A DNA stretch of 64,000 nucleotides from Quinella sp. 1Q7. GTDB lineage: Bacteria; Bacillota; Negativicutes; Selenomonadales; Selenomonadaceae. The notes under the pieces are model-generated. The model was given only the letters and a program-made list of their open reading frames with translations. It ran no database searches and was not told the DNA's origin. The translations under genes and the position numbers were made by a program. The stretch is from assembly GCA_015206805.1 (NCBI GenBank), contig JADEZP010000001.1, positions 219 to 64,218 on the forward strand, in the 5' to 3' direction. How positions within the stretch are numbered: the stretch's first letter is position 1; each line of letters opens with the position of its first letter. Shown in pieces: positions 7,250 to 64,000 of this stretch.

Positions 7250-7267
7250 GGTTGAGACCTCCTGCGT

Positions 7268-20421: not shown

Positions 20422-21573
20422 ATGGTCAACAGAATCATCTTGAACGAAACGTCGTATTTCGGACCCGGTGCGATTAAAGAAATTCCCGCCGAAATTCGCG
20501 GTCGCACCTGCAAGAAAGTCATGCTCGTCACCGACAAAGCCCTGCTCAAGTTCAAAGTCGCGACGAAAGTCACGGAGCTTTTGGCGGCGGAAGGCATCGA
20601 CTTCGAAATTTACGACAACGTCAAAGCCAATCCGACAATCGAAAACGTTCAAAGCGGAGTCGAATTCTGCAAACGTTGCGGCGCGGACATCATCGTTGCA
20701 GTCGGAGGCGGCTCGGCAATCGACACGAGCAAGGCAATCGCAATCATTATGACAAACCCCGAATTTGCCGACGTGCGCAGTCTTGAAGGCGTCGCGCCGA
20801 CAAAAAACAAATGCTTGCCGATTATCGCCGTCTCCACGACATCGGGAACTGCCGCCGAAGTCACGATTAACTACGTCATAACCGACGTTGAGCGCAACCG
20901 CAAATTCGTCTGCGTCGACCCGAAAGATATTCCCGTTGTCGCGATTGTCGATTCGGAAATGTGCGCCTCCATGCCGCCGAAACTTTGCGCCGCCACGGGT
21001 ATGGACGCGCTCGTTCACGCGATTGAAGGTTACATCACCAAAGGCGCGTGGGAGCTTACGGATATGGTGCACCTCAAGGCGATTGAAATTATTTCCAAAA
21101 ATCTGCGCCGTTCCGTCAAAGGCGACCCCGTCGGGCGTGAGCAAATGGCACTCGGTCAATATATCGCGGGCATGGGCTTTTCAAACGTCGGGCTCGGTAT
21201 CGATCACTCAATGGCGCACCCGTTGAGCGCGGTTTACGACATTCCGCACGGCACGGCTTGCGCGATTTTGCTTGCACCCGTGCTGAAGTTCAACGCTCCC
21301 GCAACCGCTGAACGTTACCGCGAAATTGCGCGGGCAATGGGCGTCGCGGGCGTCGACGATATGACGCAGGACGAATACCGCGCCGCCGCCATTGACGCCG
21401 TCGCCAAACTTAGCGCGGACGTCGGCATTCCTACGAAACTTTCCGAACTCGGCGTCAAGGCGGAGGACATCGACTTTTTGGCGGAGTCGGCTCTTGCGGA
21501 CGCCTGCACGCCCGGCAATCCCCGCGACGTGACTAAGGAACAAATCGCCGAAATTTATCGCTCAATCTTCTAA
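20422..21573 (+). CDS. fucO: iron-containing alcohol dehydrogenase, lactaldehyde reductase-like
   Basis: 383 aa from MVNRIILNETSYFG. Colinear with E. coli FucO over its whole length, with long stretches identical (NPEFADVRSLEG, TAAEVTINYVITD, RKFVCVDP, HAIEGYIT.GAW.LTD, MALGQY.AGMGFSNVGLG). GGGAGG SD. Confidence 0.85.
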   Translation: MVNRIILNETSYFGPGAIKEIPAEIRGRTCKKVMLVTDKALLKFKVATKVTELLAAEGIDFEIYDNVKANPTIENVQSGVEFCKRCGADIIVAVGGGSAIDTSKAIAIIMTNPEFADVRSLEGVAPTKNKCLPIIAVSTTSGTAAEVTINYVITDVERNRKFVCVDPKDIPVVAIVDSEMCASMPPKLCAATGMDALVHAIEGYITKGAWELTDMVHLKAIEIISKNLRRSVKGDPVGREQMALGQYIAGMGFSNVGLGIDHSMAHPLSAVYDIPHGTACAILLAPVLKFNAPATAERYREIARAMGVAGVDDMTQDEYRAAAIDAVAKLSADVGIPTKLSELGVKAEDIDFLAESALADACTPGNPRDVTKEQIAEIYRSIF

Positions 21574-24331: not shown

Positions 24332-24363
24332 CAATGAAATTTTTGTGCAGAGGAGCGCATTCA

Positions 24364-34500: not shown

Positions 34501-35930
34501 CCCCCGACAAAAAGACCAAACACGTCACCGGTTCGATTGTCGGCGGCAAAGGTCAAAGCACCATTTACGGCACGAGCGGCAACGACACTTATTTCGGGAG
34601 CGACGGCAACGATTTGATTTACGGCAACGAAGGTCGCGATTATCTTTACGGCGAAGGCGGCAACGATACGATTTACGGCGGCGCGGGCAACGATTACATT
34701 TGGGACGACAAAGGAAAAAATACGATTTACGGCGACGCGGGTAACGATACAATTTATGCAAACGGTAAAAGCAACCTTATCGTTTACAATTTCGGCGACG
34801 GCAACGATCATATCTACGGCGCGGGCACAGTCCGAATTTTGGGCGCGAGTTATTCCACGTTGCGCAACGGAAACGATTTGATTCTTGCGGTTGGCGATTA
34901 TTCGGGCTTGAAACCGGCAACTCAAATGCTCAACGGCACCGTCAAACTTATCGGCGGCAAAAAATATTTCAAAATCGAGGGCACTTGCAACGGGCAATAC
35001 ACCCCCGAAGGTCTGTCCAAAGACGACGCGGATATTAAAGTTTCTGCGGACTTCGCGGGCAGCGAAATTAACTTGGCGGACTTCGACGGAGTGAAAAATA
35101 TTGACGCGTCGACTTCCACAAAAAAATTGTCACTCGGCGGCGACAAAGGCAACAATAACTTGACGGGCAATGCGTCGGCGAATACTCTTTCGGGCGGCAA
35201 AGGTAACGACACACTCACGGGCGGCGGCGGCAAAGATGTTTTCGTTTACACGGCGGGCAAGGACGTCATCACGGATTACGCGGTCGGCGACAAAATCAAG
35301 TTTGGCGGCGCGATAACGTCGACAAAGCTTAGCGGCAACAACGTCGTCTTTACGATCGGCAAAGGCACGCTCACCGTCACCAACGCAAAGGGCAAGAAAC
35401 TCACGCTGATTGATTCGGCGGGCAAAAGCTCCACACAAACCGTCAGCGACGTTTTGACCGTCACGAATAAGACAGCTTCGCCCGTGACCGTCGCGCCGTA
35501 TGTTAAGACCGTCGACGCCTCGAAACGCACAAAATCCGTCACGATTACGGGCAATGCGTCTGCAAATTCAATCGTCGGCGGCAAGGCGTCGGATTCGCTC
35601 GTCGGACTTGCGGGCGCGGATAAACTTTACGGCGGCAAAGGTGCGGACACGCTCATCGGCGGCAAGGGCAACGACAGCTTGTGGGGCGGTGCAGGTAAAG
35701 ACACGTTCATTTACTCAAACGGCGACGGCAAAGATGTCATTTACGGATTCCAAAGCGGCGACTTGCTTCAGATAACTGACGCGTTCACCGCAAGCTACAA
35801 CAGCTCCAAAAATTCCATTGCGTTCAAAGTCGGCAGCGGCTCCGTCACGTTGCGCGACTTCAACACGACAATTTTCCGCGTCAACGACACGACATATCAG
35901 CTTAGCGGCGGCAAGCTCAAAATAAAATAA
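31556..35930 (+). pseudogene. large RTX-like calcium-binding repeat protein (~1,458 codons) interrupted by a +1 frameshift at 32264-32267
   Basis: Dozens of GGxGNDxI/GDxGNDxI nonapeptide-type repeats and modules such as DVITDY..GDKI.F...GNNVVFTIGKGTLTV.NAKGKKL. ORF 31556..32287 (frame 2) and ORF 32076..35930 (frame 3) join at gacggcGGGcgacgga, where ggcggcgac would read TIDGGDGNNTI. No N-terminal signal peptide. AT-rich 5' end. Confidence 0.75.
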
Positions 35931-41849: not shown

Positions 41850-42127
41850 AGTCGCGCAAATTATATTCCATATAACTTTTTAACTGCCGCCCTATTGTAC
41901 CCCGCCGGTTTACGCGCTATTATTTTCAGGATTTATTGGGCGTTTGGTGGACGTTCAATCTGTTCGGCGACAAAAAATTCTGTCGGGCACAATTCAAATG
42001 TCGGGGGGCATTCAAAATCGGTACTTTGTGGCGAACTGCTTGTCGAGGGGAATTTCCGGCGCAGTTCGTTGTTTTATTTTGAGCCGAAAAATTTTTTATA
42101 CCACATACGAGAAGGGAGTTCTGTTAC

Positions 42128-45100
42128 ATGAGCGATCAGTTCAATAATTTTAGTTTCGATCTCCAACGTTTCGACGGTCCGTCGTCCGTCTACTACAGCT
42201 TAATCGGCGAATCTTCTGCCGCTACTAAAGCCGGCGACAGTTTTTATTGGGGCGCAAGCGGCGCGTTAATTCAATTCGACGGTTCGCCGAGTGCGCTTCT
42301 TCAAGTCAATTACAGCACGTCAACGGCAGGCACATCAACTTACTACTCCGTTACCGAAATTGCCGATTGGGTGTCGTTGGCGGGCGCAAGTGCCGCTGAT
42401 TACAAGTTCGCGTCGATAAGCTCAACCGAAGGCTTCAACATTATCGGGCTCGGCGACAACACCGTCGAAGGGCTGACGTTCACGGGCGGTAGCTCAGTTC
42501 CGACGCTCCAATTCAGCGGCGCGGGCGACAGCTCGAAAGATTATCTCGATATTTATAACGGCGCACTAAGTAACATCGCTCTCGGCACTACAAGCGCGGC
42601 TTTCACGACCGAAGGCAACAGCTCAGGTGTCACGTGGTCGATTAACAGCTTGAGTCTCGCGCTCGACAAGGGCTTCACCTTTACGGGCGACAAAACTCTC
42701 GAACTCCTCGGCAACGACAACGCTACCGTCAACTTCACATACGCCAACGCCGTCAACAAAATTTTCGGGCTAAGCTCCAATACAATCGACGGCTTGGAAT
42801 TCACGATTGAAGGCAGCGGGACATCTTCCGTTTCGCTCGAATTCAGCGGCGCGGGCGCAAGCGATTATCTCGAAATATCGGACGGCTTGCTCGGCAACGT
42901 CGTCTTGGGCACGAGCGGCGCGGCTCTCACCGTCAACGAAAAAACTTATGACGGACAAAATTACACAACTGATGACGACACTCTTGGCTTACGCATCAAT
43001 AAAGAACGAATTGCCATTGACCAAGGCTTTAAATACAGCATCGAAGGCGAATCGTCCGACGCCGTTAAAACCGTTGAAATTTTGGCGGGCGGCACCAGCG
43101 TCATTGTCATGGATTCGGGCGACGCCAACAAAATTACTTTCGGCTCAACAAGCTATGCGACCCTGCAATTTGCTTCGAATACTTACGAATTTGTCAATGC
43201 AAGCGGTAGCGTCTACTTCACGTTAAAAAACGACGTGGGGGAAATCAATGGTTTCAATTTTGGCGGCAAGGGCGACGCGCTCTCCTTCAATGAAGCAGCA
43301 AATAATAATTTAAGTAACGGTGAAAAACTGTTCTATAAAGGTATTTCCTTTAAAGACAAAAGCGAGATTCTTTCCAATATAGACTTGGGTAACGGCGACA
43401 ACGAAAAGCTCGTTATGTTGTCTGACGACGGCAAGTTCATGTTCAGCGACCTCGTAGCAGGAGATAATATCCAATTTAACACCGATATTTTAATTAAATT
43501 TGAGGATACGGGCAATGCGGGCGGCTCGGTTGCTTTTGATGCTTTGTCGGGAACAATCACGAGTATTACCGTCGGCGAAAGCGGCATATTGACAATCACG
43601 GACGGAGACAATAGTTCTTACGGCATAAACGGCAACGACGTTATTGTCAACGACGCGGCTGTCAACGTCAGTTTCGGCACAACATCCGGCACTGAAAAAG
43701 GTTTTACATACAACAACCTCAACAGCGATAAACCAATTCTCGAACTGAATACATTCTTTAAACTCGACGAATTTGGCGACGAAGACAAAAACGAATTCGC
43801 CGTCAGCAAATGGGGCAAAGCCGTCGAACTCGCTATCGGCTGGACATCGGGCACCAACGTCACGCTCGGCAACGGCGACGACAGCGTCACGTTTATCCTC
43901 TCCACCAGCCCCGACGATCCCAATGGTTATATCTCTGATTACGAACTCCTCGGCAAGTTCACGTTCAGCGGCGAAAGCAAAGTTTCGGGCTTTATCTTCG
44001 GCGCGGACAGCGGCACCGACAGCATCATCTTCGACAAGACGTTGCTCAACACGGCGAGCTTTTCATTCGGCTACACGACCGACGGCTTCGGCAGCGCGAC
44101 TTACACATATCTCAACGTCCCGCATGTCACGTTGGCGGGCGCGGGTTCAGGTGCAGTGGCGCAGACGAGTGTTTCTGCGGCGTTTACGTTGGTTGTCGGC
44201 GGCGGCTCGGCGACGGTTGCTGACTACGACGCTTCCACGCAGGTTAAATTCGACGGCGGCACAAGCGGATTCTTCCAAATCGCTTTCGACACGAACGGCG
44301 AACTGCAAGGTATCACGCCCGTCGCGGCATTGAGCGGCGGCGCGTCGTCCTTGGCGGAAGGAATGGCGTTCACCGTCACGGGCAACACGACGGCGAACAG
44401 CGAAAGCGGTCTTTACTTCGGCTCGGCAAGCAACGTCGTCGCCATTGCAAGCGGCAGTTACATCTACACGCACTATTCACAGAGCAGCGCAGTTAAACTC
44501 GGCAACGACACAGACACGCTTTACGCATTGGCGGACGCAAAGACGCTCAACCTCGGCGGCACAAGCGGCGCAATTACCGACGCGCTGAACGGCACATCTT
44601 CAACGGACGACGATTTTACTTACCAATATCGCAGCGGCGGCAGTGCTTATTTCACAGTCGGCGCAAGCGCGTTGAGTGCGTTTGTCTTCGGTACGGTCAG
44701 CGACGCAATCGGTATGTCGGCGGGCAACAAGTTGGGGCTTGAATATGTCAACGGCACGTCGACAGCGGGTTTGAGCGTGCTTCCGACCGTCACGGGCACC
44801 AATACTTATTGGGTCGAAATGACGGGCGCAAGCGGCTCGGAATTCGCGATTAATGAATTCGGCGGCGCGGCGTCCGTTGCATTCGGCAGTGCGTCGTTCA
44901 CGTTCGCGGGCGGCTCCGACAACAGCGCGTTCATGTTTAACGCGGGCGGCTCGGCACTCGGCTTCAGCGCGGCGGCGGGCTCCGTTGCAATGAACATTGC
45001 GGCGGCGTCTTATCTTGCGGGCGGCGACTTCTCGATTAACGGCGCAAGCGTCGACATTGACGCACGAGGGCTCAACGGCACGCTGACTTACATTGCGGGC

Positions 45101-48100
45101 GAAAGCGCGTTGCTCGGCTTGGGCGACAAGAGCACCATTACCAACGCGGGCGACATCACGAAGATTTACGCGACGTCAAGTGCGGCGACATTCACATTCG
45201 GGAGCACGTCTTTCAGGGCGGACGCGGCGGGCACCTCGACGGGCGACCTTGCGTATTACGACGTGAACGGAGCTTCGGCGACGGGCTTCCACTTCATGAA
45301 GACAGCCGACTCGCTCACGTTGCCGGGCAGTGTCAGCGGCTTCAGCCTTTATGACGGCGCGAACGGCACGGGCTTCGACGCACCGACAGTTTCAGTGACG
45401 GCGGGCGGCTCGGAAGTTTCGTCGTACACCGTCGTTAAGCAGGCGGGCGATTCGTTGTTCGCAGTCGCCGGTTTGTCAGATGACAATTACGCCGAATTCG
45501 GACAAACGCATATCACGTTCGAGACGCTCTCCGCCGCGACGGGCGAAATTCTGTTCAACGTGCTCAACGCCCCGACAATCGCGCTCACGGGTATCAGCGG
45601 CTTGGTTGCCGACAACGACGCAGTTCGCGTCACGGGCGCGACGGGCGGCATAAGCATCATGGGCAAGACCGTCGAGATTGTCGGCGAAAGTTCGGGCTTC
45701 CTGTACACGAATCACGATACCGATACCGACACGATAACCGAAGTTTACGGCGACGCGACGATTAAAGCCGTTGCGGGCGCAAAAGTTATCGGCACGGCGG
45801 CAGGTCAGAGCGGGCTCGGTCAGTTCACGTTCAACATTGCAAGCGACAGCCAAATTTTCACGGTCGCGGGCGACGGCAAGAACGGCGTCAACTTCCAACT
45901 CGGCTCGGACAGCAAAGTTGTCGGCGTCAACGGCGTGGACAACGACGAATCAGTCACGGGCGCATTCTTCACGAACGGCAGCTTCAGCCTCAACAACGCG
46001 GCAGTCAGCATTGCGAACGACAGCACCTCCAACAAGACGAATTACACATTCTACGGCGCGTCGCTTGCGGGCTTGGTCAGCGGCGACAACGTCACGAAGG
46101 CGGGCGGCGTCAGCTACTTCATAACGTCAGAGTCGGGCGCATTTACAATCCTCAACACGGCAATGACAATCGGCGGCGACAGCTCGGTTGTCTTCGGCGT
46201 CAACGGCGGGCTCTCGACAATCAGCGGTCTCGACGGCGCGGACGCTTACGCTTACGGCAGTTTCAGCAACGCAATCACCGTCAACACCAAGTCCGTCAAA
46301 GTCACGGGCGACAATCTCATTGCGGTCTACGGCAACGCGGCGGCGAACGGCGTCGCGAAAATCGGCAGCTTGAGCGGCAATGTCGACGTCCTCAGCGCGG
46401 ACGATGTTACGATGGTCGGCGCGGACGGCGACGGTCAATTTACGTTCAGCTTCATGGGCAAGGGCGAAAGCTTTGCTATCGACGGCAACAGCTCTGCGGA
46501 TACTTGGTTTACGTTCGGCACGGACAGCGTCGTTGCAGGTATCAGCGGCATTGACGCGGGCGAAACCGTCACGGGCAGTTTCTCGAACGCGGCGATTGCA
46601 ATTAACAACGCGGCGACGCTCAAGATTGACGGCGACACCGACGGCAACAGCGTAACGTATGCGGGCACAAGCTTCATTGTTTACGACCTCAACGGCGGCG
46701 CGACGGTCAGTTCGGCAAGCGGCATTTACAGCGCGTGGACGGACACAATCGGCACGTCGGGCGCAAATTTCTGGTTCGGCAGCGTAAGCTTCGGCGTGGC
46801 GGGCGACAGCTCCAACGGCGTGCAATTTGTCCTTGATGGCGATTCGATTGTCGACAGCGTAACCGACCTCGACTTTGACGCGACACTGCGCGGCGGCTTG
46901 AGCAGTCTTCAGTCCGTCAACAACGCAAGCTTCAGCGTCGGCGGCGATGATAATTTCGGCGTTGTCGGCGGCACGGGCGCAAGCGGCATTCGCGCGATAA
47001 TCGACCTGTCGAACAATGCGACGGTCTCCAATGCGGGCGGCGCGACGTTGGCTGTCACCGATACGATTGCAAGCGGCGGCTCGCTGGCGATAATGTTCAA
47101 CAACACGGCGTTCACGATTGAAGGCGCGGACTCCGACGGCGTCAACTTCATTTTGAACAGCGCGGGCAGTGTCGTTGCAGTTGAAGACCTCGACGCCAAC
47201 GCGACACTTCGCGGCGACTTGACGGGCTTGAGCTCAATCAACGGCATATCGTTTGCAGTCGGCGGCGATACGAGTTTGGCGGTTGTCGGCGCGGCAAGCG
47301 GTATCAGCGCGATTCTCGACCTGTCGAACGGCGCGACACTGACGAATTCGGGCGGCGCGACTGTTGCCGTGACCGACACGGAAGGTCAATTCACCTTCGA
47401 CGGCAAAACATTCACGGTTGCGGGCGACAGCTCGGTTACGTTTGGATTGAGCGGCGTCGCGGTCACGGGCGTAAGCTACTTCGACGCTCCCGCGACAATC
47501 ACCGGCGAAATCAGCGGCTTGACGATTAACAACGACACTACACAAATCAACATCACGGGCGACAGCGACAGCATCTTCAGCTACGCGATTGACAGTGCAA
47601 GCGGCGCGACACTCGGCGGCGTCGGCGGCAGCTCGACGGTCGTAATTAACCACGCGGCGGGCGCGAACGTCGTTCAAGTCATCGACGCGAGCAACTATCA
47701 GTTCGGAACGGCGTCGGCATTCACGCTTGCCGGCACGAGTGCGGCGGTTGACTTCATGGTCAACAGCTTGAGCGTTACGGCAGTCGGCGGGCTCAACGAT
47801 ACAGAAACGCTCACGGGCTACGGCTTCGACAAGGTCGTTTCGATTAACGGCGCGACGTTCGACATCAAGGGCGACGCGGGCGATATGATGGTCGTCGGCA
47901 ACACGGGCGCAAGCGGCTTAACGGTTATCGGCAATGTCGGCTCAAGTGACGGCGTCACGATTAACAATGTCGGCGGCGCGTCGAAAGTCTCAACCGATTT
48001 GGACGGCGTCTTCAATTTCGTAAGCAACCTCATGCCGTTCACGGTCAGCGGCGATACGAACGTCGACTTCATCACGGCGGCTGGTCAATCGGCTTCCGTT

Positions 48101-51100
48101 ATCGGCGTCGAAAGCTTCAGCGGTCCCGCGACAATCAGCGGTGCGCTCGACGGCGTTTATATCAACGACGACACGTTGGCGATTGACATCACGGGCGACA
48201 GCGACAGCCTGTTGAGTTACATGCTCAACGGCACGGCGACACTCGGTAGCGTCGGCGGCGATAACGTCACGATTAACGGCGTGGCGGGCGCAAGCGTCGT
48301 TCAAATCACGGCGTCGGGTATCTACGACTTCCAACTCGGCGCAAGCGAAATTTTCACGCTGGCGGGCGGCGATTCGTCGGTCTTCTTCGGGCTCGACGGC
48401 ACGACGGTCAAATCGATTGCCGACTTCGACAAGGGCGACAGCGTGACGGGCAACTTCGCCAACGGCATAACGGTCAGCGGCGGCAGTGCGACGTCTTATA
48501 TCAAAGTCACGGGCGACGACACGATTCAAGTTGTCCGCGACGACATCCAGATTAACAAGCTGTCGAACGGCGCGACGATTGATGCGGCGGACAGTGTCAG
48601 CATTGCGTGGACGGACGCGTTCAGCTCAAGTTCAATCGCGATTCAGGACGCGGACGGTTACCGCTTCACGGTCAACGGCTTCGATTCGACGGGCGTGGAA
48701 TATTTGCTCAACGACAGCGGTCACGTTATCGGCGTGAGCAGTCTCGATACGGGCGTCACGTTGACGGGCAGCTTGAGCGTGCTCAATTCGATTAACGGCG
48801 CGACATTCGATGTCAAGGGCGACGATACGTTGGCGGTTGTCGGCGCGTCGACGGGCGTCAGCAAAATTTTTGAGTTGAGCGACGGCGCGACGGTCACATC
48901 TGCGGCGGGCGCGAGTCAAGCTTTGACGGATTCGACGGGCAATTTCTACTTCGGCAGTCAGAGCTTCACGGTCGACGGCGACAGCGCAATAACCTTCGGA
49001 CTCAACAACAGCGCCGTCAACACAATCAGCGAACTTAGCGGCTCCGTGACGAGCTTCAACTTCGCGGACATCACGTCGACAAACGGCAAGAGCTTTGCGA
49101 TTTCGGGCGACGCCGAAGATTTGATGATCGTCGGCAACGCGGCGGCGAGCGGTCTTGCGCAAATTGACAAGGTCGGCGCGGGCGAAGGTCAAACAGTCAC
49201 GATAACCAATGCGGGCGGCGCGACGCTCATTTCGACGGACAAGGCGGGCGGCTTCAGCTTCGTGTCGAGCGAGCAGAATTTCACGTTGCAGAGCGCGGGC
49301 GACAGCGTCATAAACTTTGCGCTTGACGCGACCGAAACGGTCACGGCAATCGGCGGCGTCGGTGACACGGAAACGATTATCGGCGTGTTCGACGCGGTCG
49401 ATTCGGTCAACGGCGTGGCGTTCGATATCGTCGGCGACAGCGGCACATTGTCGATTGTCGGTCGCGACGACTTGAGCTCAATCAGCAAGATTATGGGCGT
49501 CGGCAATGCGGGCGGCGGCAACGTCACGATTAACAATGTCGGCGGCGCGGACGAATTGCTTACGAACGCGGCGGGAACGTTCGTGTTCACGGGCGCAAGT
49601 TTCCTGACGAATGACGACAGTTTGACGTTTGCACTTGGCGGTGACAGCGCGACGGCGATAACCGGGCTCGACAACGGCAAATCGATTCAAAGTTCGTTCG
49701 CGGGCGTGAGCTCCGTCAACGGCAAAAATTTCAGCATTAACGACAGCGACAGCTCAATCGTGATTTTCGGCGGCGCGGCGAGCTCAATCAGCAAGATTGC
49801 GGGCGTGACGGGTAACGCGACGATTGCCAACGCGGGCGGCGCGAGCCAAATCATCACGGACAGCGTCGGCACGTTCCAATTCCAGAATCAAACGCTGACG
49901 ACGGGCAGCGACAATGTCGTTACGTTCGGTTTGAGCGGCGACATCGTCACGACGATTGACGGTTTGAGCGGCAACGTCGCGGGTCAATTCGACAGCGTGA
50001 CGGCGGTCAACGGTCACAGCTTCGTAGTTTTGGGCGACGCGGGCGACTTGACGGTTTACGGCGCGGCGAACGAAAGTTCGGTTGTCGGACTGGACGGCGT
50101 CGGCTCAAGTGGCAACGTCACGATTCAATATGTCGGCGGCGCGAGCTACGTCGGCACGGACAACGTCGGCACGTTCCAATTCGGCGGCGGACAAAGCTTC
50201 ACGGTCGACGGCGACGCCTCAATCAAATTCATAACCGCGACGGACGACGCGCCCGCAAGCGTGCTGGGCGTGACGGACTTCAACGGCGACGCGACGATTA
50301 CCGGCAAACTCAACGACATTTCAATCAACGGCGGCTCGGTCAAGATTGACATTGACGGCGACGCGGACGACATCTTCAGCTACGCGCTCAATTCGGCGGG
50401 CTCGACGCTCGGCGCGGTCGGCGGCTCAAGTGTGACGATTCGCGGCGCGGACGGTGCTGATGTCGTTCAAGTCACGCAAGACGGCGCGTATCAATTCAGC
50501 ATAACGGGCGCGGGTCAGGCGTTCACGGTCAGCGGCGACGGCGACGGCGTCAACTTCGCGCTGGTCAACAACACCGTTCAATCCGTGAGCGACCTCGACG
50601 AAAATGCGACACTTCGCGGCAATTTGAACGACCTGTCGGCGGTCAACGGTCAATCGTTCGCTGTGACGGGCGATAATAATTTCGGCGTTGTCGGCGGCGC
50701 GAGTGCACAGACGCTCAGCAAAATTTTCGGCTTGAGCGGCACGGTTACTGTCAATCGTTCGGGCGGCGCGACACAAATCGGCGCGGACGGCGACGGTCAA
50801 TTTGCCTTCAACTTTGCGGCGGGCGAAAACTTTACGCTCGGCGGCAACGGTGCGGAGCAGACTTGGTTCACGTTCGGCGCAAGCTTCGTTGAGGCGATTG
50901 ACGGCGTCGACAACGGCGAAACCGTCACGGGCAATTTCAGCCACGGAATTGACATCAACGGCGGCAACTCGATTCAAGTCACGGGCGACGACAAAATCAG
51001 CGTGGCAAGCGTGACGGGCGCACTCGAAATCGCTAACCTCGGCGGCGGCGCGACGGTTGCAGTTGCGGGCGGCGTGAGCTTGGCGCGGACGGAAACTCTC

Positions 51101-54100
51101 GGCGGCTCGGCTGTAACGTTTACGTTCGTCGATGAGACTTTCAGCGTGAGCGGCGACACTGACGGCGTCGACTTCGTGCTTGACGGCAACACGGTCGTTA
51201 AGAAAGTCAACGACCTCGACTTTGACGCGACGTTGCGCGGCGGCTTGAGCAGTCTTCAGTCCGTCAACAACGCAAGCTTCAGCGTCGGCGGCGATGACAA
51301 TTTCGGCGTCGTCGGCGGCACGGGCGCAAGCGGCATTCGCGCGATAATCGACCTGTCGAACAATGCGACTGTTTCCAATGCGGGCGGCGCGACACTTGCC
51401 GTCACGGATGAGCAGGGCACGTTTACATTCAACGGCGACACGTTCACGGTTGCGGGCGACAGCTCGGTCAACTTCCTGCTTGACGGCGCGGGCAGTGTCG
51501 TTGCAGTTGAAGACCTCGACGCGGGCGCGACACTTCGCGGCGACTTGACGGGCTTGAGCTCAATCAACGGCATATCGTTTGCAGTCGGCGGCGATACGAG
51601 TTTGGCAGTCGTCGGCGCGGCAAGCGGTATCAGCCGAATCCTCGACTTCAGCGACGGCGCGACACTCACGAATTCGGGCGGCGCGACAGTTGCAGTCACG
51701 GACACTGTCGGCGCGTTCACATTCGACGGCAAGACCTTCACAATCGCGGGCGACAGTTCCGTTACATTCGGATTGAGCGGCGCGGCAGTCACGAGCGTGA
51801 CAAACTTCAATGCACCCGCGACAATCACCGGCGAAATCAGCGGGCTCAAGATTAACGACGACACTACGGCGATTGACATCACGGGCGACAGCGACAGCAT
51901 CTTCAGCTACGCGCTCAACTCGACGGGCTCGACACTCGGCGCGGTCGGCGGCAGCTCCGTCACGATTAACCATGCGGCAAGTGCGAACGTCGTTCAAGTC
52001 ATCAGCGCGGGCAACTATCAGTTCGGAACGGCGTCGGCATTCACGCTTGCCGGCACGAGTGCGGCGATTGACTTCATGGTCAACAGCTTGAGCGTTACGG
52101 CAGTCGGCGGGCTCAATGATACAGAAACGCTCACGGGCTACGGCTTCGACAAGGTCACCGCGATTAACGGCGCGACGTTCGACATCAAGGGCGACGCGGG
52201 CGATATGATGGTCGTCGGCAACACGGGCGCAAGCGGCTTAACGGTTATCGGCAATGTCGGCTCAAGTGACGGCGTGACGATTAACAACGTCGGCAACGCG
52301 TCGAAGGTCAGCACCGATATGGAAGGCGTCTTCGACTTCGCGAACCCTGCGGCGGCGTTCACGGTCAGCGGCGACAGCTCCGTCGACTTCGTTATGGCGG
52401 CGGGAGCTTCGGCTTCGGTTGTCGGCGTCGAAAGCTTCGACAGTCCCGCGACGATTGCAGGCGCGCTCGACGGAATTTATATCAACGGCGCGAGCTTGGC
52501 GATTGAAATTGACGGCGACAGCGACAACATCTTCAGCTACGCGGTTGACGGCTCAACGACGCTCGGCATGGTCGGCGGCGCGAACGTCACGATTAACGGC
52601 GCGGCTGATGCGGACGTCGTGCAGGTCGTCGAAGACGGTCAGTACAATTTCTTCGGCGGGCAGTCGTTCAAGTTTGCGGGAGAAAGCCTCGACTTCGGTT
52701 TGAGCGGCGACACGGTCACGGCGATTGACGGGCTCGATGTCGGCGAAACCGTGACGGGCGACTTCAACAATTCAATCACAATTAACGAAAATAACGTTCA
52801 AGTTGCGGACGACAGCGCGGTTGACGTGACGACCGACGGCTCCAAGCTTGAGCTTAACGGTTTGACCAATGGCGCGAATGTCATGCAGGCGGACGGCGTG
52901 TCGAGTGCGTTCACCGACGGCGAAGGCAACTTTACGTTCGTCAACGGCACATTCACGGTCAGCGGCGACAGCGACGGCGTCGAGTTCAAGCTTGACGGCG
53001 CGGCAAATGTTGTCGGCGTCGACGGGCTGGATTCGGGCGCGACGTTGCGCGGCGACATCAACGGGCTCACGGTCAACGGACAGCTGGTCGACATTCGCGG
53101 CGACAGTTTCGGCGTGGTCGGCGGCACGAGCGGCGTCAGCCAAATCATCGACATGAGCGAGCCGGCGACAGTCCACAATGCGGGCGGCGCGACTGAACTT
53201 TTGACGGATTCGGACGGCACGTTCTGGTTCGAGGCGGGCGGCGTGAGCTTCCTGATTGAGGGCGACAGCGCGGTTACGTTCGTTTCGAGCGACGGGGTCA
53301 GCGTGGCGAGCGGCGTTGAAAATCTGGACGGCTGGTTGACGGCGGACAGCAACGTCTTCGCGGACGGCTTCAGCGTCAACGGTCAGACGGTGCAAATCGT
53401 CGGCGACGAAGGCACTTTGCGCATCCACGGTACGGGCGACGCGATTGATACGATTGCGGGCGTGACGGGCGATGTCACGATTCAATCGACGGGCGGCGCG
53501 AATTTCATCATCACCGACGCGCAAGGAACGTTCGAGTTCGCGAATCAGACGTTCACGACGGGCGGCGACGACACGGTCACGTTTGAACTTGACGGCGATA
53601 ACGTCACGGCAATCAGCGACCTCAACGGTTACGTCGCGAGTGACAATTTCGACGGCGTCACGGTCAACGGCAAGAGCTTCGACATTGCGGGCGACGCGGG
53701 CGATATGACGATTCACGGCGACGACAGCGGCATAACGGAAATTGCGGGCGTCGGCAGTTCAAGTGGCGTCACGATTAACAACGTCGGCGGCGCGGAAAAA
53801 GTCAGCACCGATATGGAAGGCGTCTTCGAGTTCGCGGACAATGCGGCGGCGTTCACGGTCAGCGGCGACAACTCCGTCGAATTCGTTATGGCGGCTGGTC
53901 AATCGGCTTCGGTTATCGGCGTCGAAAACTTCGACGAGCCCGCGACGATTGCAGGCGCACTCGACGGCGTTTATATCAACGGCAGTTCGTTGGCGATTGA
54001 AATTGACGGCGACAGCGACAACATCTTCAGCTACGCGGTCAACGGCTCAACAACGCTGGGCGAAGTCGGCGGCGCGAACGTCACGATTAACGGCGCGGCT

Positions 54101-57100
54101 GATGCGAACGTTGTGCAGGTCGTCGAAGACGGCAACTATAATTTCTTCGGCGGGCAGAGCTTCAAGTTCGCGGGAGAAAGTCTTGACTTCGGCTTGAGCG
54201 GCGACAGTGTGACGTCGATTGACGGGCTTGATGTCGGCGAAACCGTGACGGGCGACTTCAACAATTCAATCACAATTAACGATAATAATGTTCAAGTTGC
54301 GGACGACAGCGCGGTCGACGTGACCAACGACGGCTCCAAACTTGAGTTGCGCGGACTGACGACGGGCGCGAACGTTTTGCAGGCGGACGGCGTCAGCAGT
54401 GCGTTCACGGACGGCGAAGGCAACTTCGAGTTCGTCAACGGCGAGTTCACGGTCAGCGGCGACAGCGACGGCGTCGAGTTCAAGCTTGACGGCGCGGCAA
54501 ATGTTGTCGGCGTCGACGGGCTGGATTCGGGCGCGACGCTCCGCGGCGACATCAACGGCTTGACGGTCAACGGACAACTGGTCGACATTCGCGGCGACGC
54601 GGACGGCTTCGGCGTGGTCGGCGGCACGAGCGGCGTCAGCCAAATCATTGAAATGAGCGAGCCGGCGACGGTGCACAATGCGGGCGGCGCGACTGAACTG
54701 CTCACGGATTCGGACGGGACTTTCTGGTTCGAGGCGGGCGGCGTCAGTTACCTCATCGAGGGCGACAGCTCCGTTACGTTTATTTCGGACGGCGTGAGTG
54801 TTGCGAGCGGCGTCGAAAATCTGACCGGCTGGATTGAGGCGGACGCGGCTGTTTTCGCGGACGGATTCAGCGTGAACGGTCAGACGGTGCAAATTGTCGG
54901 CGACTCGGGAACTTTGCGAATTCACGGCACGGGCGACGCGATTGACACGATTGCGGGCGTGACGGGCGATGTCACGATTCAGAGCACGGGCGGCGCGAAT
55001 TTCATCATCACCGACGCGCAAGGAACGTTCGAGTTCGCGAATCAGACGTTCACGACGGGCGGCGACGACACGGTCACGTTTGAACTTGACGGCGACACGG
55101 TCACGGCAATCAGCGACCTCAACGGTTACGTCGCGAGCAACAATTTCGACGGCGTCACGGTCAACGGCAAGAGCTTCGACATTGTCGGCGACGCGGGCGA
55201 TATGATGGTCATCGGCAACGACTACGAAAACGGCATTACAGAAATTGCGGACGTCGGCTCAAGTGGCGGCGTGACGATTAACAACGTCGGCGGCGCGGGC
55301 AAAGTTGTCAGCGACACTGAAGGCGTCTTCGACTTCGCGGACAATGCGGCGGCGTTCACGGTCAGCGGCGACAGCTCCGTCGACTTCGTTATGGCGGCGG
55401 GAGCTTCGGCTTCGGTTGTCGGCGTCGAAAGCTTCGACAGTCCCGCGACGATTGCAGGCGCGCTCGACGGAATTTATATCAACGGCGCGAGCTTGGCGAT
55501 TGAAATTGACGGCGACAGCGACAACATCTTCAGCTACGCGGTTGACGGCTCAACGACGCTCGGCATGGTCGGCGGCGCGAACGTGACGATTAACGGCGCG
55601 GCTGATGCGGACGTTGTGCAGGTCGTCGAGGACGGCAATTACAATTTCTTCGGCGCGCAAAAATATACGCTTGCCACCGATAACGATTCGGACGGCGTAA
55701 ACTTCGTGCTCGACGGCACAACCGTCACCGCGATTGAAAGCTTCGACAAGGGCGACAGCATTATCGGCGACTTCACGAACGAAATAACCGTAAGCGGCGG
55801 CGACGAATCGTCTTATATCAAAGTCACGGGCGACACGGAAATTTTGGTTGAGCACGACGACATTTTGATTAAGAAACTTTCGGACGGCGCGACGATTGAT
55901 GCGGCGGGCGGCGTCAGCATTGCGTGGACGGACGCGCTTACAGGTGCGGCACTTGCGATTCAGGACGCGGACGGGCACCGCTTCACGGTCAACGGCTTCG
56001 ATTCGACGGGCGTGGAATATTTGCTCAACGGCAGCGGTCACGTTATCGGCGTGAGCAGTCTCGATACGGACGTCACGTTGACGGGCAGCTTGAGCGTTTT
56101 AAATTCGATTAACGGCGCGACATTCGATGTCAAGGGCGACGATACGTTGGCGGTTGTCGGCGCGTCGACGGGCGTCAGCAAAATTTTTGAGCTTAGCGGC
56201 GGCGCGACGGTCACATCTGCGGCGGGCGCGAGTCAAGCTTTGACGGATTCGACGGGCAATTTCTACTTCGGCGGGCAAAGCTTCACGGTCGGCGGCGACA
56301 GCGCGATAACGTTCGGCTTGAACAACAGCACCGTCAACACAATCAGCGAACTTAGCGGCTCCGTGACGAGCTTCAAATTCGCGGACATCACGTCGACAAA
56401 CGGCAAGTCGTTCGCGATTTCGGGCGACGCTGATGATTTGATGGTCGTCGGCAATGCGGCGGCGAGCGGTCTTGCGCAAATTGACAAGGTCGGCGCGGGC
56501 GACGGTCAAACGGTCACGATAACCAATGCGGGCGGCGCGACGTTCATTACAACCGATAAGGCGGGCGGCTTCAGCTTCGTGTCGAGCGAGCAGAATTTCA
56601 CGTTGCAGAGCGCGGGCGACAGCGTCATAAACTTTGCGCTGGACGCGACCGAAACGGTCACGGCGATTGGCGGCGTCGGCGGCACGGAAACGATTATCGG
56701 CGTGTTCGACGCGGTCGATTCGGTCAACGGCGTGGCGTTCGACATCGTCGGCGACAGCGGCACATTGTCGATTGTCGGTCGCGACGGCTTGAGCTCAATC
56801 AGCAAGATTATGGACGTCGGCAACGCGGGCGGCGGCAACGTCACGATTAACAACGTCGGCGGCGCGGACGAATTGCTTACGAACGCGGCGGGAACGTTTG
56901 TGTTCAAGGGCGCAAGTTTCCTGACGGACGACAACGCTTTGACGTTTGCACTTGCCAACGACAATGCGACGGCGATAACCGGTCTCGACAACGGCAAATC
57001 GATTCAAAGTTCGTTCGCGGGCGTGAGCTCCGTCAACGGCAAAAATTTCACCGTTAACGACGGCGACAGCTCAATCGTGATTTTCGGCGGCGCGGCGAGC

Positions 57101-60100
57101 TCAATCAGTCGGATTGCGGGCGTGACGGGTAACGCGACAATTTACAACGCGGGCGGCGCGAGCCAAATTATCACGGACGCGGCGGGCGTGTTCCAATTCC
57201 CGAATCAAACGCTGACGACGGGTGGCGACGCGGTTGTTACGTTCGGTTTGAGCGGCTACATCGTCACGACGATTGACGGTTTGAGCGGCAGCGTCGCGGG
57301 ACAATTCGACAGCGTGACGGCGGTCAACGGTCACAGCTTCGTGATTCTCGGCGACGCGGGCGATATGACGGTTTACGGCGCGGCGAACGAAAGTTCGGTT
57401 GTCGGACTGGACGGCGTCGGCAGTGCGGGCAACGTCACGATTCAATATGTCGGCGGCGCAAGTTACGTCGGCACGGACAACGTCGGCACGTTCCAATTCG
57501 GCGGCGGACAAAGCTTCACGGTCGACGGCGACGCCTCAATCAAATTCATCACGGCGACGGACGACGCTCCCGCAAGCGTTTTGGGCGTGACTGACTTTGG
57601 CAACGACGCGACGATAACCGGCAAGCTCAACGACATTTCAATCAACGGCGGCTCGGTCAAAATCGACATTGACGGCGACACGGACGACATCTTCAGCTAC
57701 GCGCTCAACTCGACGGGCTCGACGCTCGGCGCGGTCGGCGGCTCAAGTGTGACGATTCGCGGCGCGGACGGTGCAAACGTCGTTCAAGTCACGCAAGACG
57801 GCGCGTATCAGTTCAGCATAACGGGCGCGGGTCAGGCGTTCACGGTCAGCAACGACACTGACGGCGTCAACTTCGCGCTGGTCAACAACACCGTTCAATC
57901 CGCAAGCGACCTCGACGACGGCGCGACACTTCGCGGCAACTTGAACGACCTCGCGGCGGTCAACGGTCAATCCTTCGCCGTGACGGGCGACGATAATTTC
58001 GGCGTGGTCGGCGGCGCAAGTGCGCAAACTTTGAGCAAAATTTTCGACTTGAGCGGCACGGTTGAAGTTGCTCAATCGGGCGGCGCGACACAAATCGGCG
58101 CGGACGGCGACGGTCAATTTGCATTCAATTTCGCGGCGGGCGAAAACTTTACGCTCGGCGGCAACAGCTCTGCGGATACTTGGTTTACGTTCGGCGCAAG
58201 CTTCGTCACGGGTATCAGCGGCGTCGACGCGGGCGAAACCGTCACGGGCAATTTCAGCCACGGAATTGACATCAACGGCGGCAACTCGATTAAAGTCACG
58301 GGCGACGACAATATCAGCGTGGCAAGCGTGACGGGCGCGCTCGAAATCGCTGACCTCGGCGGCGGCGCGACGGTTGCAGTTGCGGGCGGCGTGAGCCTTG
58401 CTCGAACGGAAACTCTCGGCGGCACAAACGCGGCGTTTACGTTCGTTGATGAGACTTTCAGCGTGAGCGGCGACGCTGACGGCGTCGACTTCGTGCTTGA
58501 CGGCAACACGGTTGTTAAGGAAATCAACGACCTCGACGCGGGCGCGACACTTCGCGGCGGCTTGAGCAGCCTCGATTCCGTCAACGGCGCGACATTCGAC
58601 GTCGGCGGCGATAATAATTTCGGCGTTATCGGCGGCACGGGCGCAAGCGGCATTCGCGCGATAATCGACCTGTCGAACAATGCGACTGTTTCCAATGCGG
58701 GCGGCGCGACGTTGGCTGTCACGGACGAGCAGGGCACGTTTACATTCAACGGCGACACGTTCACGGTTGAGGGCGACAGCTCGGTTAACTTTATTTTGAA
58801 CAGCGCGGGCAGTGTCGTTGCAGTTGAAGACCTCGACGCGGGCGCGACACTTCGCGGTGACTTGACGGGCTTGAGCTCAATCAACGGCATATCGTTTGCA
58901 GTCGGCGGCGATACGAGTTTGGCGGTTGTCGGCGCGGCAAGCGGTATCAGCCGAATCCTCGACTTCAGCGACGGCGCGACACTCACCAATTCGGGCGGCG
59001 CAAGTCAGGCGGTCACGGATACTGTCAGCGCGTTCACATTCGACGGCAAGACCTTCACAATCGCGGGCGACAGCTCCGTTACGTTCGGATTGAGCGGCGT
59101 TGCGGTCACGGGCGTTACAAACTTTAACGCACCCGCGACAATCACCGGTCAAATCAGCGGGCTCAAGATTAACAACGACACTACGAAAATTCAAATCAGC
59201 GGCGACACCGACAGCATCTTCAGCTACGCGATTGACAGTGCAAGCGGCGCGACACTCGGCGCAGTCGGCGGCAGCTCGACGGTCGTAATTAACCACGCGG
59301 CGGGCGCGAACGTCGTGCAAGTCATCAGCGGCGGCAACTATCAGTTTGGAACGGCGTCGGCATTCACGCTTGCCGGCACGAGTGCGGCGATTGACTTCAT
59401 GGTCAACAGCTTGAGCGTTACGGCAGTCGGCGGACTCAACGATACCGAAACGCTCACGGGCTACGGCTTCAACGACGTTGTTTCAATCAACGGCGCGAAG
59501 TTCGACATCAAGGGCGACGCGGGCGATATGATGGTCGTCGGCAACACGGGCGCAAACGGCTTAACGGTTATCGGCAATGTCGGCTCAAGTGACGGCGTGA
59601 CGATTAACAACGTCGGCAACGCGTCGAAGGTCAGCACCGATATGGAAGGCGTCTTCGACTTCGCGAACCCTGCGGCGGCGTTCACGGTCAGCGGCGACAC
59701 GAACGTCGACTTCATCACGGCGGCTGGTCAATCGGCTTCTGTTATCGGCGTCGAAAACTTCGGCGGCGTGGCGACGATTGCAGGCGCGCTCGACGGAATT
59801 TATATCAACGGCGCGAGCTTGGCGATTGAAATTGACGGCGACAGCGACAGCCTGTTGAGTTACGCGGTTGACGGCTCAACGACGCTCGGCATGGTCGGCG
59901 GCGCGAACGTCACGATTAACGGCGCGGCTGATGCGGACGTCGTGCAGGTCGTCGAAGACGGTCAGTACAATTTCTTCGGCGGGCAGTCGTTCAAGTTTGC
60001 GGGAGAAAGCCTCGACTTCGGTTTGAGCGGCGACACGGTCACGGCGATTGACGGGCTCGATGTCGGCGAAACCGTGACGGGCGACTTCAACAATTCAATC

Positions 60101-63100
60101 ACAATTAACGAAAATAACGTTCAAGTTGCGGACGACAGCGCGGTTGACGTGACGACCGACGGCTCCAAGCTTGAGCTTAACGGTTTGACCAATGGCGCGA
60201 ATGTCATGCAGGCGGACGGCGTGTCGAGTGCGTTCACCGACGGCGAAGGCAACTTTACGTTCGTCAACGGCACATTCACGGTCAGCGGCGACAGCGACGG
60301 CGTCGAGTTCAAGCTTGACGGCGCGGCAAATGTTGTCGGCGTCGACGGGCTGGATTCGGGCGCGACGTTGCGCGGCGACATCAACGGGCTCACGGTCAAC
60401 GGACAGCTGGTCGACATTCGCGGCGACAGTTTCGGCGTGGTCGGCGGCACGAGCGGCGTCAGCCAAATCATCGACATGAGCGAGCCGGCGACAGTCCACA
60501 ATGCGGGCGGCGCGACTGAACTTTTGACGGATTCGGACGGCACGTTCTGGTTCGAGGCGGGCGGCGTGAGCTTCCTGATTGAGGGCGACAGCGCGGTTAC
60601 GTTCGTTTCGAGCGACGGGGTCAGCGTGGCGAGCGGCGTTGAAAATCTGGACGGCTGGTTGACGGCGGACAGCAACGTCTTCGCGGACGGCTTCAGCGTC
60701 AACGGTCAGACGGTGCAAATCGTCGGCGACGAAGGCACTTTGCGCATCCACGGTACGGGCGACGCGATTGATACGATTGCGGGCGTGACGGGCGATGTCA
60801 CGATTCAATCGACGGGCGGCGCGAATTTCATCATCACCGACGCGCAAGGAACGTTCGAGTTCGCGAATCAGACGTTCACGACGGGCGGCGACGACACGGT
60901 CACGTTTGAACTTGACGGCGATAACGTCACGGCAATCAGCGACCTCAACGGTTACGTCGCGAGTGACAATTTCGACGGCGTCACGGTCAACGGCAAGAGC
61001 TTCGACATTGCGGGCGACGCGGGCGATATGACGATTCACGGCGACGACAGCGGCATAACGGAAATTGCGGGCGTCGGCAGTTCAAGTGGCGTCACGATTA
61101 ACAACGTCGGCGGCGCGGAAAAAGTCAGCACCGATATGGAAGGCGTCTTCGAGTTCGCGGACAATGCGGCGGCGTTCACGGTCAGCGGCGACAACTCCGT
61201 CGAATTCGTTATGGCGGCTGGTCAATCGGCTTCGGTTATCGGCGTCGAAAACTTCGACGAGCCCGCGACGATTGCAGGCGCACTCGACGGCGTTTATATC
61301 AACGGCAGTTCGTTGGCGATTGAAATTGACGGCGACAGCGACAACATCTTCAGCTACGCGGTCAACGGCTCAACAACGCTGGGCGAAGTCGGCGGCGCGA
61401 ACGTCACGATTAACGGCGCGGCTGATGCGAACGTTGTGCAGGTCGTCGAAGACGGCAACTATAATTTCTTCGGCGGGCAGAGCTTCAAGTTCGCGGGAGA
61501 AAGTCTTGACTTCGGCTTGAGCGGCGACAGTGTGACGTCGATTGACGGGCTTGATGTCGGCGAAACCGTGACGGGCGACTTCAACAATTCAATCACAATT
61601 AACGATAATAATGTTCAAGTTGCGGACGACAGCGCGGTCGACGTGACCAACGACGGCTCCAAACTTGAGTTGCGCGGACTGACGACGGGCGCGAACGTTT
61701 TGCAGGCGGACGGCGTCAGCAGTGCGTTCACGGACGGCGAAGGCAACTTCGAGTTCGTCAACGGCGAGTTCACGGTCAGCGGCGACAGCGACGGCGTCGA
61801 GTTCAAGCTTGACGGCGCGGCAAATGTTGTCGGCGTCGACGGGCTGGATTCGGGCGCGACGCTCCGCGGCGACATCAACGGCTTGACGGTCAACGGACAA
61901 CTGGTCGACATTCGCGGCGACGCGGACGGCTTCGGCGTGGTCGGCGGCACGAGCGGCGTCAGCCAAATCATTGAAATGAGCGAGCCGGCGACGGTGCACA
62001 ATGCGGGCGGCGCGACTGAACTGCTCACGGATTCGGACGGCACATTCTGGTTCGAGGCGGGCGGCGTGAGTTTCCTGATTGAGGGCGACAGTTCCGTTAC
62101 GTTCATTTCGAGCGACGGCGTGAGCGTGGCGAGCGGCGTTGAAAATCTGGACGGCTGGTTGACGGCGGACGCGGCGATTTTCGCGGACGGCTTCAGCGTC
62201 AACGGTCAGACGGTGCAGATCGTCGGCGACACGGGTACTTTGCGGATTCATGGCACGGGCGACGCGATTGATACGATTGCGGGCGTGACGGGCGATGTCA
62301 CGATTCAGAGCACGGGCGGCGCGAATTTCATCATCACCGACGCGCAAGGAACGTTCGAGTTCGCGAATCAGACGTTCACGACGGGCGGCGACGACACGGT
62401 CACGTTTGAACTTGACGGCGACACGGTCACGGCAATCAGCGACCTCAACGGTTACGTCGCGAGCAACAATTTCGACGGCGTCACGGTCAACGGCAAGAGC
62501 TTCGACATTGTCGGCGACGCGGGCGATATGATGGTCATCGGCAACGACTACGAAAACGGCATTACAGAAATTGCGGACGTCGGCTCAAGTGGCGGCGTGA
62601 CGATTAACAACGTCGGCGGCGCGGGCAAAGTTGTCAGCGACACTGAAGGCGTCTTCGACTTCGCGGACAATGCGGCGGCGTTCACGGTCAGCGGCGACAA
62701 CTCCGTCGAATTCGTTATGGCGGCTGGTCAATCGGCTTCGGTTGTCGGCGTCGAAAACTTCGACGAGCCCGCGATGATTGCAGGTGCACTTGACGGCGTT
62801 TACATCAACGGCGCGAGCTTGGCGATTGAAATTGACGGCGACAGCGACAGTATCTTCAGCTACGCGGTCGACGGCTCAACGACACTCGGTAGCGTCGGCG
62901 GCGATAACGTCACGATTAACAGCGCGGCTGATGCGGACGTTGTGCAGGTCGTCGAAGACGGAACGTATGAATTCTTCGGCGCGCAAAAATATACGCTTGC
63001 CACCGATAACGATTCGGACGGCGTAAACTTCGTGCTCGACGGCACAACCGTCACCGCGATTGAAAGCTTCGACAAGGGCGACAGCATTATCGGCGACTTC

Positions 63101-64000: not shown

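Follow-up and report, generated by a model that had tools for sequence, protein, structure and literature searches.

Giant RTX adhesins carry 20-120 repeats, and a beta-sandwich extender is treated as defining for the group (PMC7493085). A second point of reference is Prp, a cytoplasmic C108 protease that is found in Firmicutes generally, processes ribosomal protein L27 and capsid proteins of phages, and is linked to a short N-terminal motif. In the L27 protein of Firmicutes this motif reads MLxx(D/N)LQ(F/L)F'A(S/H)KK, and it has been proposed for FlhB as well (PMC9405229). The motif is common to the capsid and scaffolding proteins of phage 80alpha (PMC9405229, PMC5744158). The leader of the 80alpha scaffold is needed for assembly whereas its cleavage is not, and Prp associates with large self-assembling complexes (PMC5744158). 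Here we describe a giant gene that has features of both kinds of protein. It occupies positions 42128-64000 (+) of a 64,000-nucleotide stretch, referred to as the window, of contig JADEZP010000001.1 from the metagenome-assembled genome (MAG) of Quinella sp. 1Q7 (GCA_015206805.1).

Quinella, a large, oval, uncultured member of the Selenomonadaceae within the diderm Firmicutes, lives in the sheep rumen. It is abundant in the rumen and has been linked to low-methane sheep. Electron microscopy of Quinella revealed short tufts that are unexplained, a coat that was granular and electron-dense, and material interpreted as 'possibly... denatured surface associated proteins', and both granular and smooth cell types were reported; the giant gene is not mentioned in that study (PMC9585023). 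With a probability of roughly 0.6, we favor the view that the gene encodes a megadalton, Ca2+-dependent surface fibre with a novel rigid beta extender and a conserved leader of cytoplasmic type, which would be exported C-terminus first by an unlinked type I secretion system (T1SS).

An open frame of at least 7,291 codons and its module array

In-frame translation of 42128-64000 (+) gave a single stop-free frame of 7,291 codons that is still open at the window edge. Over the same interval, 211 and 267 stops interrupt the other two forward frames. The ATG at 42128 is the sole start codon before 42371, with the closest upstream in-frame stop at 42080, and a Shine-Dalgarno-like element, GAAGGGAG (42111-42118, +), was read directly 9 nt upstream of it. 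Judged by eye, the N-terminus (MSDQFNNFSFDLQRFDGPSS) lacks a Sec-type signal and has no hydrophobic h-region. The visible part of the protein has a mass of 728 kDa and a pI of 4.05, with 906 D+E residues against 179 K+R. It contains no Cys and little K (1.8%), R (0.64%), M (0.78%) or W (0.30%); G accounts for as much as 15% of the residues, and A, S, T, V and D for ~10% each. All of this agrees with the initial annotation, made from the sequence alone, which had noted an uninterrupted open reading frame (ORF) of more than 7,290 codons starting at this ATG behind a well-placed Shine-Dalgarno element, and an acidic, Cys-free product poor in K, R, M and W and without an N-terminal signal peptide.

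The GC content of the ORF is 58.9%, compared to 53.2% in the flank. This excess is due to Gly, Ala and Asp codons, with GC at third codon positions (GC3) only modestly higher (0.75 compared to 0.65-0.69). Between two large internal copies (2,881 codons) dN/dS is 0.41 and all gaps are in-frame, indicating purifying selection on the reading frame. The ORF is a genuine giant gene of Quinella sp. 1Q7 of at least 7,291 codons.

To delineate the repeats, a hidden Markov model (HMM) was iterated on the protein's own sequence. This resolved 60 head-to-tail modules of 96-110 aa (median 103, n=60) spanning aa 1215-7291 (45770-64000, +), the last of them cut by the window end. The dozens of ~105-aa modules initially described are thus present, whereas the N-terminal region is neither as long (~1,580 aa) nor as unique as had been stated. 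The array begins at about aa 1215, leaving a non-modular part of ~1,210 aa. Within it, regular modules are missing from aa 16-1214 (42173-45769, +), where aa 100-217 and 901-1000 bear a weak resemblance to modules. Moreover, aa 617-1330 (43976-46117) are homologous by BLASTP to the N-regions of the relatives described below, with identities of 39% over 649 aa (P0008), 33% (P0006) and 30% (P0004).

Clustering at 60% identity sorted the modules into 22 types, in the order ABCDEFGHIJKLMNOPQDEFGHRSTUHRSTUHVJKLMNOPQDEFGHRSTUHRSTUHVSKK. The array is hierarchical: a 24-module super-repeat is present twice, with DEFGH and RSTUH blocks nested in it. By self-megablast, copy 1 (~8.7 kb; 47846-56495, +) and copy 2 (55163-63821, +) are 90.7% identical over 8,713 nt; they overlap in coordinates because the period is ~7.32 kb. 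Nested within the super-repeat are 1.9-kb sub-repeats with 88-90% nucleotide identity. An exact-repeat scan identified 1,491 nt shared without a difference between 52538-54028 and 59861-61351 (+), in copies that are elsewhere ~91% identical. It stems either from a recent gene conversion or from the route that the assembly took through a collapsed repeat. Note that a test for half-module duplication (hhalign; E=0.0024, probability 12%) was weakly suggestive and was not used.

The module fold, the family and its C-terminus

No Pfam or NCBIfam model reached E=0.001 on any quarter of the protein. Only sub-threshold noise appeared at E<=1, and the Big, cadherin and VCBS families were absent even at this level. 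A sequence profile search of the PDB with a 24-module profile returned no relative. The initial annotation had suggested a structure prediction for two or three modules. For aa 1636-1947 (modules 5-7), AlphaFold2 was given an alignment of non-overlapping paralogous triples together with two metagenomic fragments. The resulting model was confident (predicted local distance difference test, pLDDT, 91.9; predicted template modeling score, pTM, 0.87) and all-beta, with ~10 strands of 4-7 residues per module. The pTM of 0.87 across three modules argues for a fixed inter-module geometry, and therefore for a rod rather than beads on a string.

When the three-module model was searched with Foldseek, no PDB entry matched at E<=1e-3. 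The top PDB hits were beta-propellers, the best of them at E=7e-3 and TM 0.15. Against BFVD there was likewise nothing at E<=1e-3 (best E=2e-2), and the beta-helix passenger domains, which are present in the PDB, gave no match. Judged against Pfam, NCBIfam, PDB and BFVD, the modeled module thus appears to adopt an unrecognised fold. The beta-rich character proposed at the outset is borne out by the model, and the failure to match the repeats by eye to RTX, FHA, cadherin/Big or autotransporter repeats was reproduced by the Pfam, NCBIfam and PDB searches.

The designation as an unrecognised family requires qualification: the module matches no curated family or solved fold, but the protein is not an orphan and belongs to a very rare family. 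An exhaustive HMMER search of 1.84 billion proteins with the module profile yielded 85 representatives, 17 of them below 1e-30. These include P0003-P0013 (2,335-4,220 aa) and more distant representatives of 5,198-6,554 aa. A word-indexed homologue search, whose candidate filter was probably saturated by the biased composition, yielded only 2 fragments for the modules and none for the N-terminal 1,100 aa. Complete relatives (2,200-6,500 aa) consist of a leader, an N-region, a module array and a conserved C-terminal region of ~900-1,300 aa. When the C-terminal alignment was run against one genome per GTDB species, six loci were obtained. Five are in Selenomonadales/Selenomonadaceae MAGs sampled from ruminants or the gut; the remaining one is on a contig of 1.6 kb that was assigned, probably wrongly, to a Muribaculaceae bin. 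All named members of the family are from Selenomonadales. The family is therefore rare and lineage-restricted.

The C-terminal region of the relatives is of the RTX type. PF00353 scored 24.2 bits in P0006 (cutoff 23) and 20.8 bits in P0081, and a precomputed PF00353 match was present in 9 of 17 C-terminal fragments. For the C-terminal fragment P0159 (724 aa), an AlphaFold model was obtained with a pLDDT of 87.4. Its top Foldseek match was the RTX domain of CyaA (7rah_E; E=1.4e-6, probability 1.00), and it also matched the lipases 2z8z and 2qua (Pseudomonas MIS38, Serratia), serralysins, alkaline proteases and an RTX-adhesin domain of Aeromonas (9cse). Matches to the S-layer protein RsaA were weak (6z7p, E=0.017; 5n8p, E=0.055; probability 0.15-0.23).

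The modules most similar to those in the window belong to the relatives L005, with 59% identity over 506 aa, and L006, with 45% over 1,473 aa. In both relatives, a single ORF runs from the modules through the RTX domain to the stop. By homology, the Quinella protein likely ends in an RTX beta-roll region as well. The source contig (68,294 bp) is the largest contig of bin SR1Q7. Locus-tag and accession arithmetic appears to place the window near the contig start, which would leave ~4.3 kb (at most 1,431 codons) downstream, just enough for a C-terminus of the family's kind. A metagenome scan for the Quinella C-terminus recovered only two already known lineages, and the contigs with C-terminal fragments, L079-L083, are not close to Quinella. 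The C-terminal alignment of the relatives was too divergent for pattern extraction.

The N-terminal leader

The first 15 residues of the protein, MSDQFNNFSFDLQRF (42128-42172, +), contain the motif F-x-F-D-L-Q-R-F at aa 8-15 (42149-42172). A Prp-type scissile bond is predicted after F15, between MSDQFNNFSFDLQRF and DGPSS, with D16 as P1'. The position of the motif, which ends at residue 15, and its D-L-Q-x-F core fit the Prp-substrate motif; R at P2 and D at P1' differ from it. The pattern [F/L]-x-F-[D/S/E]-[L/I]-Q-[R/L]-F is found at residues 4-19 in all ten of the best relatives and in 14 of the 29 representatives of at least 2,000 aa, where many of those lacking the motif are fragments. Across the family, P1' is A in nine cases, D in two, and V, F, Q or S in the others.

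To search for the leader in phages, F-x-F-D-L-Q-R-F-A was back-translated and compared with 2.9 million viral contigs (IMG/VR), of which 66 matched. Excluding ORFs cut by contig ends, the motif lies a few residues from the start of the ORF in 63 of 64 recovered occurrences, and these ORFs encode ~100-410 aa; no leader-bearing phage ORF exceeds 614 aa. The canonical L variant was N-terminal in 97 of 105 viral hits. PHROGs assigned the leader-bearing ORFs to major head, head scaffolding, major tail and head-closure proteins, and the phages can be placed, loosely, as those of Firmicutes and of the gut. At P2, both R and L occur among orthologous tail proteins (L096 compared to L040 and L060), indicating that the R form is a natural variant of the same signal. 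P1' of the phage leaders is A in 64 cases and D in 2, the latter in scaffold-like proteins. F-x-F-D-L-Q-(R/L)-F-A thus stands at the N-termini of non-homologous virion proteins (IMG/VR L010-L075 and L084 onward) with roles in head, scaffold, tail tube and head closure, a wider range than that known from the capsid and scaffold of 80alpha.

In the first 1,580 aa of the giant protein, where a LapG-type retention module would sit, there is no family match; the conserved FDLQRF leader is found instead. A literature search returned no mention of the motif on giant or RTX proteins. No rpmA (L27), prp or FlhB gene is present in the window or in the loci of relatives examined. Since P1' is D in the window and variable in the family, the leader may serve as a binding or chaperoning signal and not necessarily as a cleavage site. 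A more far-reaching proposal, which we put forward tentatively as possible rather than probable, is that the leader is a functional Prp signal. Diderm Firmicutes would then have co-opted Prp for the N-termini of megadalton T1SS fibres, as a cytoplasmic checkpoint of retention or release that would be analogous to LapG but located on the opposite side of the membrane, with the extender as a new rigid all-beta fold.

Two variations on the leader were observed in relatives. In L079, a second ORF (6340-8913) directly follows the stop of the family member; it starts ...EEFKFDLQRFVDG... and continues into a long poly-acidic (DDTxDDA)n tract. Leader-carrying genes therefore occur in tandem in some relatives. 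The distant relatives P0056 and P0065 (6,041-6,501 aa) have MEKFKINSQ(E/D)LI..AGG before an F-S-(I/L)-Q-R-F-A motif. This pre-leader resembles those of the double-glycine bacteriocin type and hints at export by a peptidase-containing ATP-binding cassette (ABC) transporter in that branch.

Export, alternatives and relation to known systems

In the fibre reading, the giant protein would be made in the cytoplasm without a Sec signal, as its N-terminus suggests, and exported C-terminus first by a T1SS that recognises the C-terminal RTX beta-roll seen in full-length relatives. Outside the cell, Ca2+ would fold the Asp/Gly-rich modules into a long, rigid, all-beta rod, as the composition and the three-module model suggest. 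This rod, an adhesin-like fibre or a tuft on the surface, would project from the outer membrane or coat it. The leader would be the last part to leave the cell. It would probably provide a cytoplasmic processing or chaperoning signal, and hypothetically might set retention versus release of the fibre.

Several properties of the protein are those of RTX adhesins and T1SS substrates: a tandem extender of 10-15 kDa repeats, acidity (pI 4.05, excess of D+E), lack of Cys and lack of a Sec signal. The presence of a classical RTX protein 6 kb upstream of the giant gene also supports a T1SS substrate. This conventional RTX calcium-binding protein (31556-35930, +) scored 161.8 bits with PF00353 in 7 stretches. 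It is split into overlapping ORFs in different frames (31556-32287 and 32076-35930), which reflects either a frameshift or pseudogene, or a sequencing error. We considered it as a paralogue of the giant protein and rejected this, as it shares only generic RTX repeats and has neither the leader nor the modules.

A number of points weigh against the fibre reading. RTX adhesin genes usually adjoin their T1SS genes. No gene for an ABC transporter, membrane fusion protein (MFP) or outer membrane factor (OMF) is present in window positions 1-42127, and none lies within ~10 kb on either side of L002, L003, L005, L006, L007 or L079. A 2016 survey lists type IV and type V secretion systems (T4SS, T5SS) for Negativicutes, but not T1SS (PMC4793230). 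The window ends inside the module array, so that the C-terminus of the Quinella protein itself lies outside it, and the modules are presumed to bind Ca2+. In the giant protein no ligand-binding domain was recognised. Judging from the model, the modules differ from the beta-sandwich or BIg domains by which RTX adhesin extenders are defined, and Foldseek returned no match to the extender domains of SiiE, MpIBP or Lap, although all of these are in the PDB. Finally, assembly may distort length and copy number: the exact module count is uncertain because of the 1,491-nt exact repeat in a MiSeq assembly, while the giant open gene is robust. The initial annotation had proposed a fibre-like adhesin or surface-layer role. 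The T1SS-type C-terminal export that it suggested is thus upheld in part, by the RTX beta-roll at the end of the relatives, but not by T1SS genes near the window gene or the six relatives. Because flanking T1SS genes are missing, T1SS is not in the Negativicutes census and the extender is not a beta-sandwich, we liken the mode of action of the protein to that of an RTX adhesin without assigning it to that family.

The upstream neighborhood is housekeeping in character, with a kdtA-lpxK fusion, glyQS, a dicarboxylate symporter, carAB, comEC and comF. The window contains no tRNA, Rfam match or Prp gene, and no LapG or LapD genes were found near the giant gene. The flanks of the six relatives are varied (glycosyltransferases, sulfatase, IMPDH, pyruvate kinase, mreB, P-type ATPase, flgK/flgL), with no conserved partner gene. 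In L006, a Selenomonadaceae MAG from red deer, flgK and a gene with a flagellin N domain (13892-17195) are located ~6 kb from the giant gene, in one of the six loci.

Three other genes of the window were noted. The kdtA-lpxK fusion (24334-26859, +) joins KdtA (Kdo transferase) and LpxK (tetraacyldisaccharide 4'-kinase) in 841 aa; the exact sequence is absent from the protein collection and the called start may differ. A 704-aa ORF (21562-23676, -) combines a C-5 cytosine DNA methylase (aa 4-325) with an HpaII restriction endonuclease (aa 335-662), and looks like a fused type II restriction-modification methyltransferase-endonuclease, or two genes merged by stop loss. At 2132-3292 (-), a fragment of a Type ISP restriction enzyme comprises the C-terminal specificity domain only and adjoins a 'minor capsid protein' gene (3829-4878, -); the two are probably remnants of mobile or defence elements.

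Among the alternatives, we regard as unlikely that the giant protein is a Prp-dependent, self-assembling structural protein that polymerises into a coat, sheath or cell-associated scaffold, such as the granular layer, and is not an adhesin. Its leader would then direct it to the cytoplasmic protease or chaperone pathway that serves ribosomes, procapsids and tails. No other short feature of the family is as conserved as the leader, which is identical to that of phage head, scaffold, tail and head-closure proteins, and Prp has been linked to large self-assembling complexes (PMC5744158). The weak hits of the C-terminal model to RsaA, a T1SS-secreted S-layer protein, and the existence of granular and smooth cell types would also be in line with a coat. 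However, P1' in the window is D rather than A, which is rare in phage leaders (2 versus 64), and its variability across the family argues against strict Prp cleavage. There is no sign of self-assembly, the RsaA matches are of low probability, and a monomer of 60 modules is more like a fibre than a lattice subunit.

We give still less credence to export by a route other than T1SS, such as the flagellar type III apparatus or an unknown system of diderm Firmicutes that would read the N-terminal leader. The absence of linked T1SS genes in every family member examined and the lack of reported T1SS in Negativicutes (PMC4793230) speak for such a route. Further points in its favor are the motif at the N-terminus of FlhB in Firmicutes (PMC9405229), the location of the L006 gene near flgK, flgL and flagellin genes, and the double-glycine-like pre-leader of P0056 and P0065. 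Against these stands the RTX beta-roll C-terminus, a hallmark of T1SS substrates that is conserved across the family. The flagellar neighborhood is confined to one of six loci, and a Ca2+-folded rod would, by analogy, be poorly suited to the narrow flagellar channel. Moreover, the conventional RTX protein in the same window implies a T1SS in this genome.

It is very improbable that the gene is an assembly artefact or pseudogene, in which SPAdes chained alleles of co-binned strains or looped exact repeats while the true gene is far shorter or broken. The MAG is a SPAdes assembly of MiSeq 2x300 reads with a strain heterogeneity of 77.8% and a contamination of 8.6% (PMC9585023). The 1,491-nt exact repeat exceeds such reads, the 9% divergence of the two 8.7-kb copies could equally fit strain alleles, and the giant protein is missing from a collection of 15 billion proteins. 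Nevertheless, the frame is kept whichever path is taken through the repeat graph (0 stops over 21.9 kb), and the nested DEFGH and RSTUH (twice) duplications at 85-89% identity show tandem amplification intrinsic to the gene. Independent MAGs encode intact relatives of 2,200-6,550 aa. Together with the dN/dS of 0.41, these observations restrict the artefact explanation to copy number.

It is hardly credible that the gene is of phage or prophage origin and encodes a structural protein such as a giant tail fibre or decoration protein instead of a host surface protein: the leader common to virion proteins, the 'minor capsid protein' gene and restriction-modification fragments elsewhere in the window and the high GC of the ORF are outweighed by immediate neighbors of housekeeping function (carAB, comF, glyQS, lpxK), relatives in varied chromosomal contexts without adjacent phage genes, the 614-aa ceiling on leader-bearing phage ORFs, the lack of a BFVD match for the module model, a GC excess explained by Gly, Ala and Asp codons, and an RTX beta-roll C-terminus, which is not a feature of phage fibres. 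Two-partner secretion (FHA/TpsA) and autotransporters were rejected, as there was no Pfam match, signal peptide or beta-helix Foldseek hit, and the relatives end in RTX and not in a barrel.

With the surface fibre as the preferred reading, the giant gene is a concrete candidate for the tufts and granular coat of Quinella, which are unexplained at the molecular level. It would extend the RTX-adhesin design to diderm Firmicutes, a host clade without described systems of that kind. The extender module, unknown to family and fold libraries, is a target for structural biology. The leader on a giant, putatively secreted protein suggests that Prp substrates may reach beyond ribosomes and virions, and that large secreted fibres may be controlled at the N-terminus from inside the cell.

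Compared to the giant RTX adhesins, represented by MpIBP of Marinomonas primoryensis, LapA of Pseudomonas fluorescens, SiiE of Salmonella and the Lap proteins of Aeromonas and Marinobacter, the Quinella protein follows the same plan of an N-region, dozens of ~100-aa units and a C-terminal RTX beta-roll, the latter seen in its relatives. Like them it is very acidic, nearly free of Cys and without a Sec signal, has a predicted rigid, rod-like extender, and its 60 repeats are within the range of 20-120 (PMC7493085). In contrast to these adhesins, its extender is not BIg or beta-sandwich and has no Pfam match, no T1SS operon is linked and no LapG/LapD-type genes are nearby. A Prp-type leader takes the place of a recognisable retention module, no ligand-binding domain was recognised, and the host is a diderm Firmicute.

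With the Prp substrates (L27 of Firmicutes, 80alpha capsid and scaffold, and FlhB as proposed), the protein shares a short leader with a (D/N)-L-Q-x-F core 8-15 residues from Met1, and a host phylum, Firmicutes, that has Prp. In contrast to these small proteins that assemble in the cytoplasm, it is an RTX-type protein of more than 7,000 aa that is predicted to be secreted. Its P2 is R, where F or L is published, and its P1' is D, where A is expected; cleavage is only predicted. As to the classical RTX and S-layer proteins, the C-terminal region of the family matches the beta-rolls of CyaA, serralysins and T1SS lipases (Foldseek probability 1.00). Unlike CyaA, serralysins, lipases and RsaA, the protein has no enzymatic or toxin domain, the RTX nonapeptides of the family are few and near the Pfam threshold, and most of the protein consists of another repeat, which is unrecognised. 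In conclusion, what is new here is an RTX-adhesin-like architecture with an apparently unrecognised extender fold, a different N-terminal device and a new host clade.

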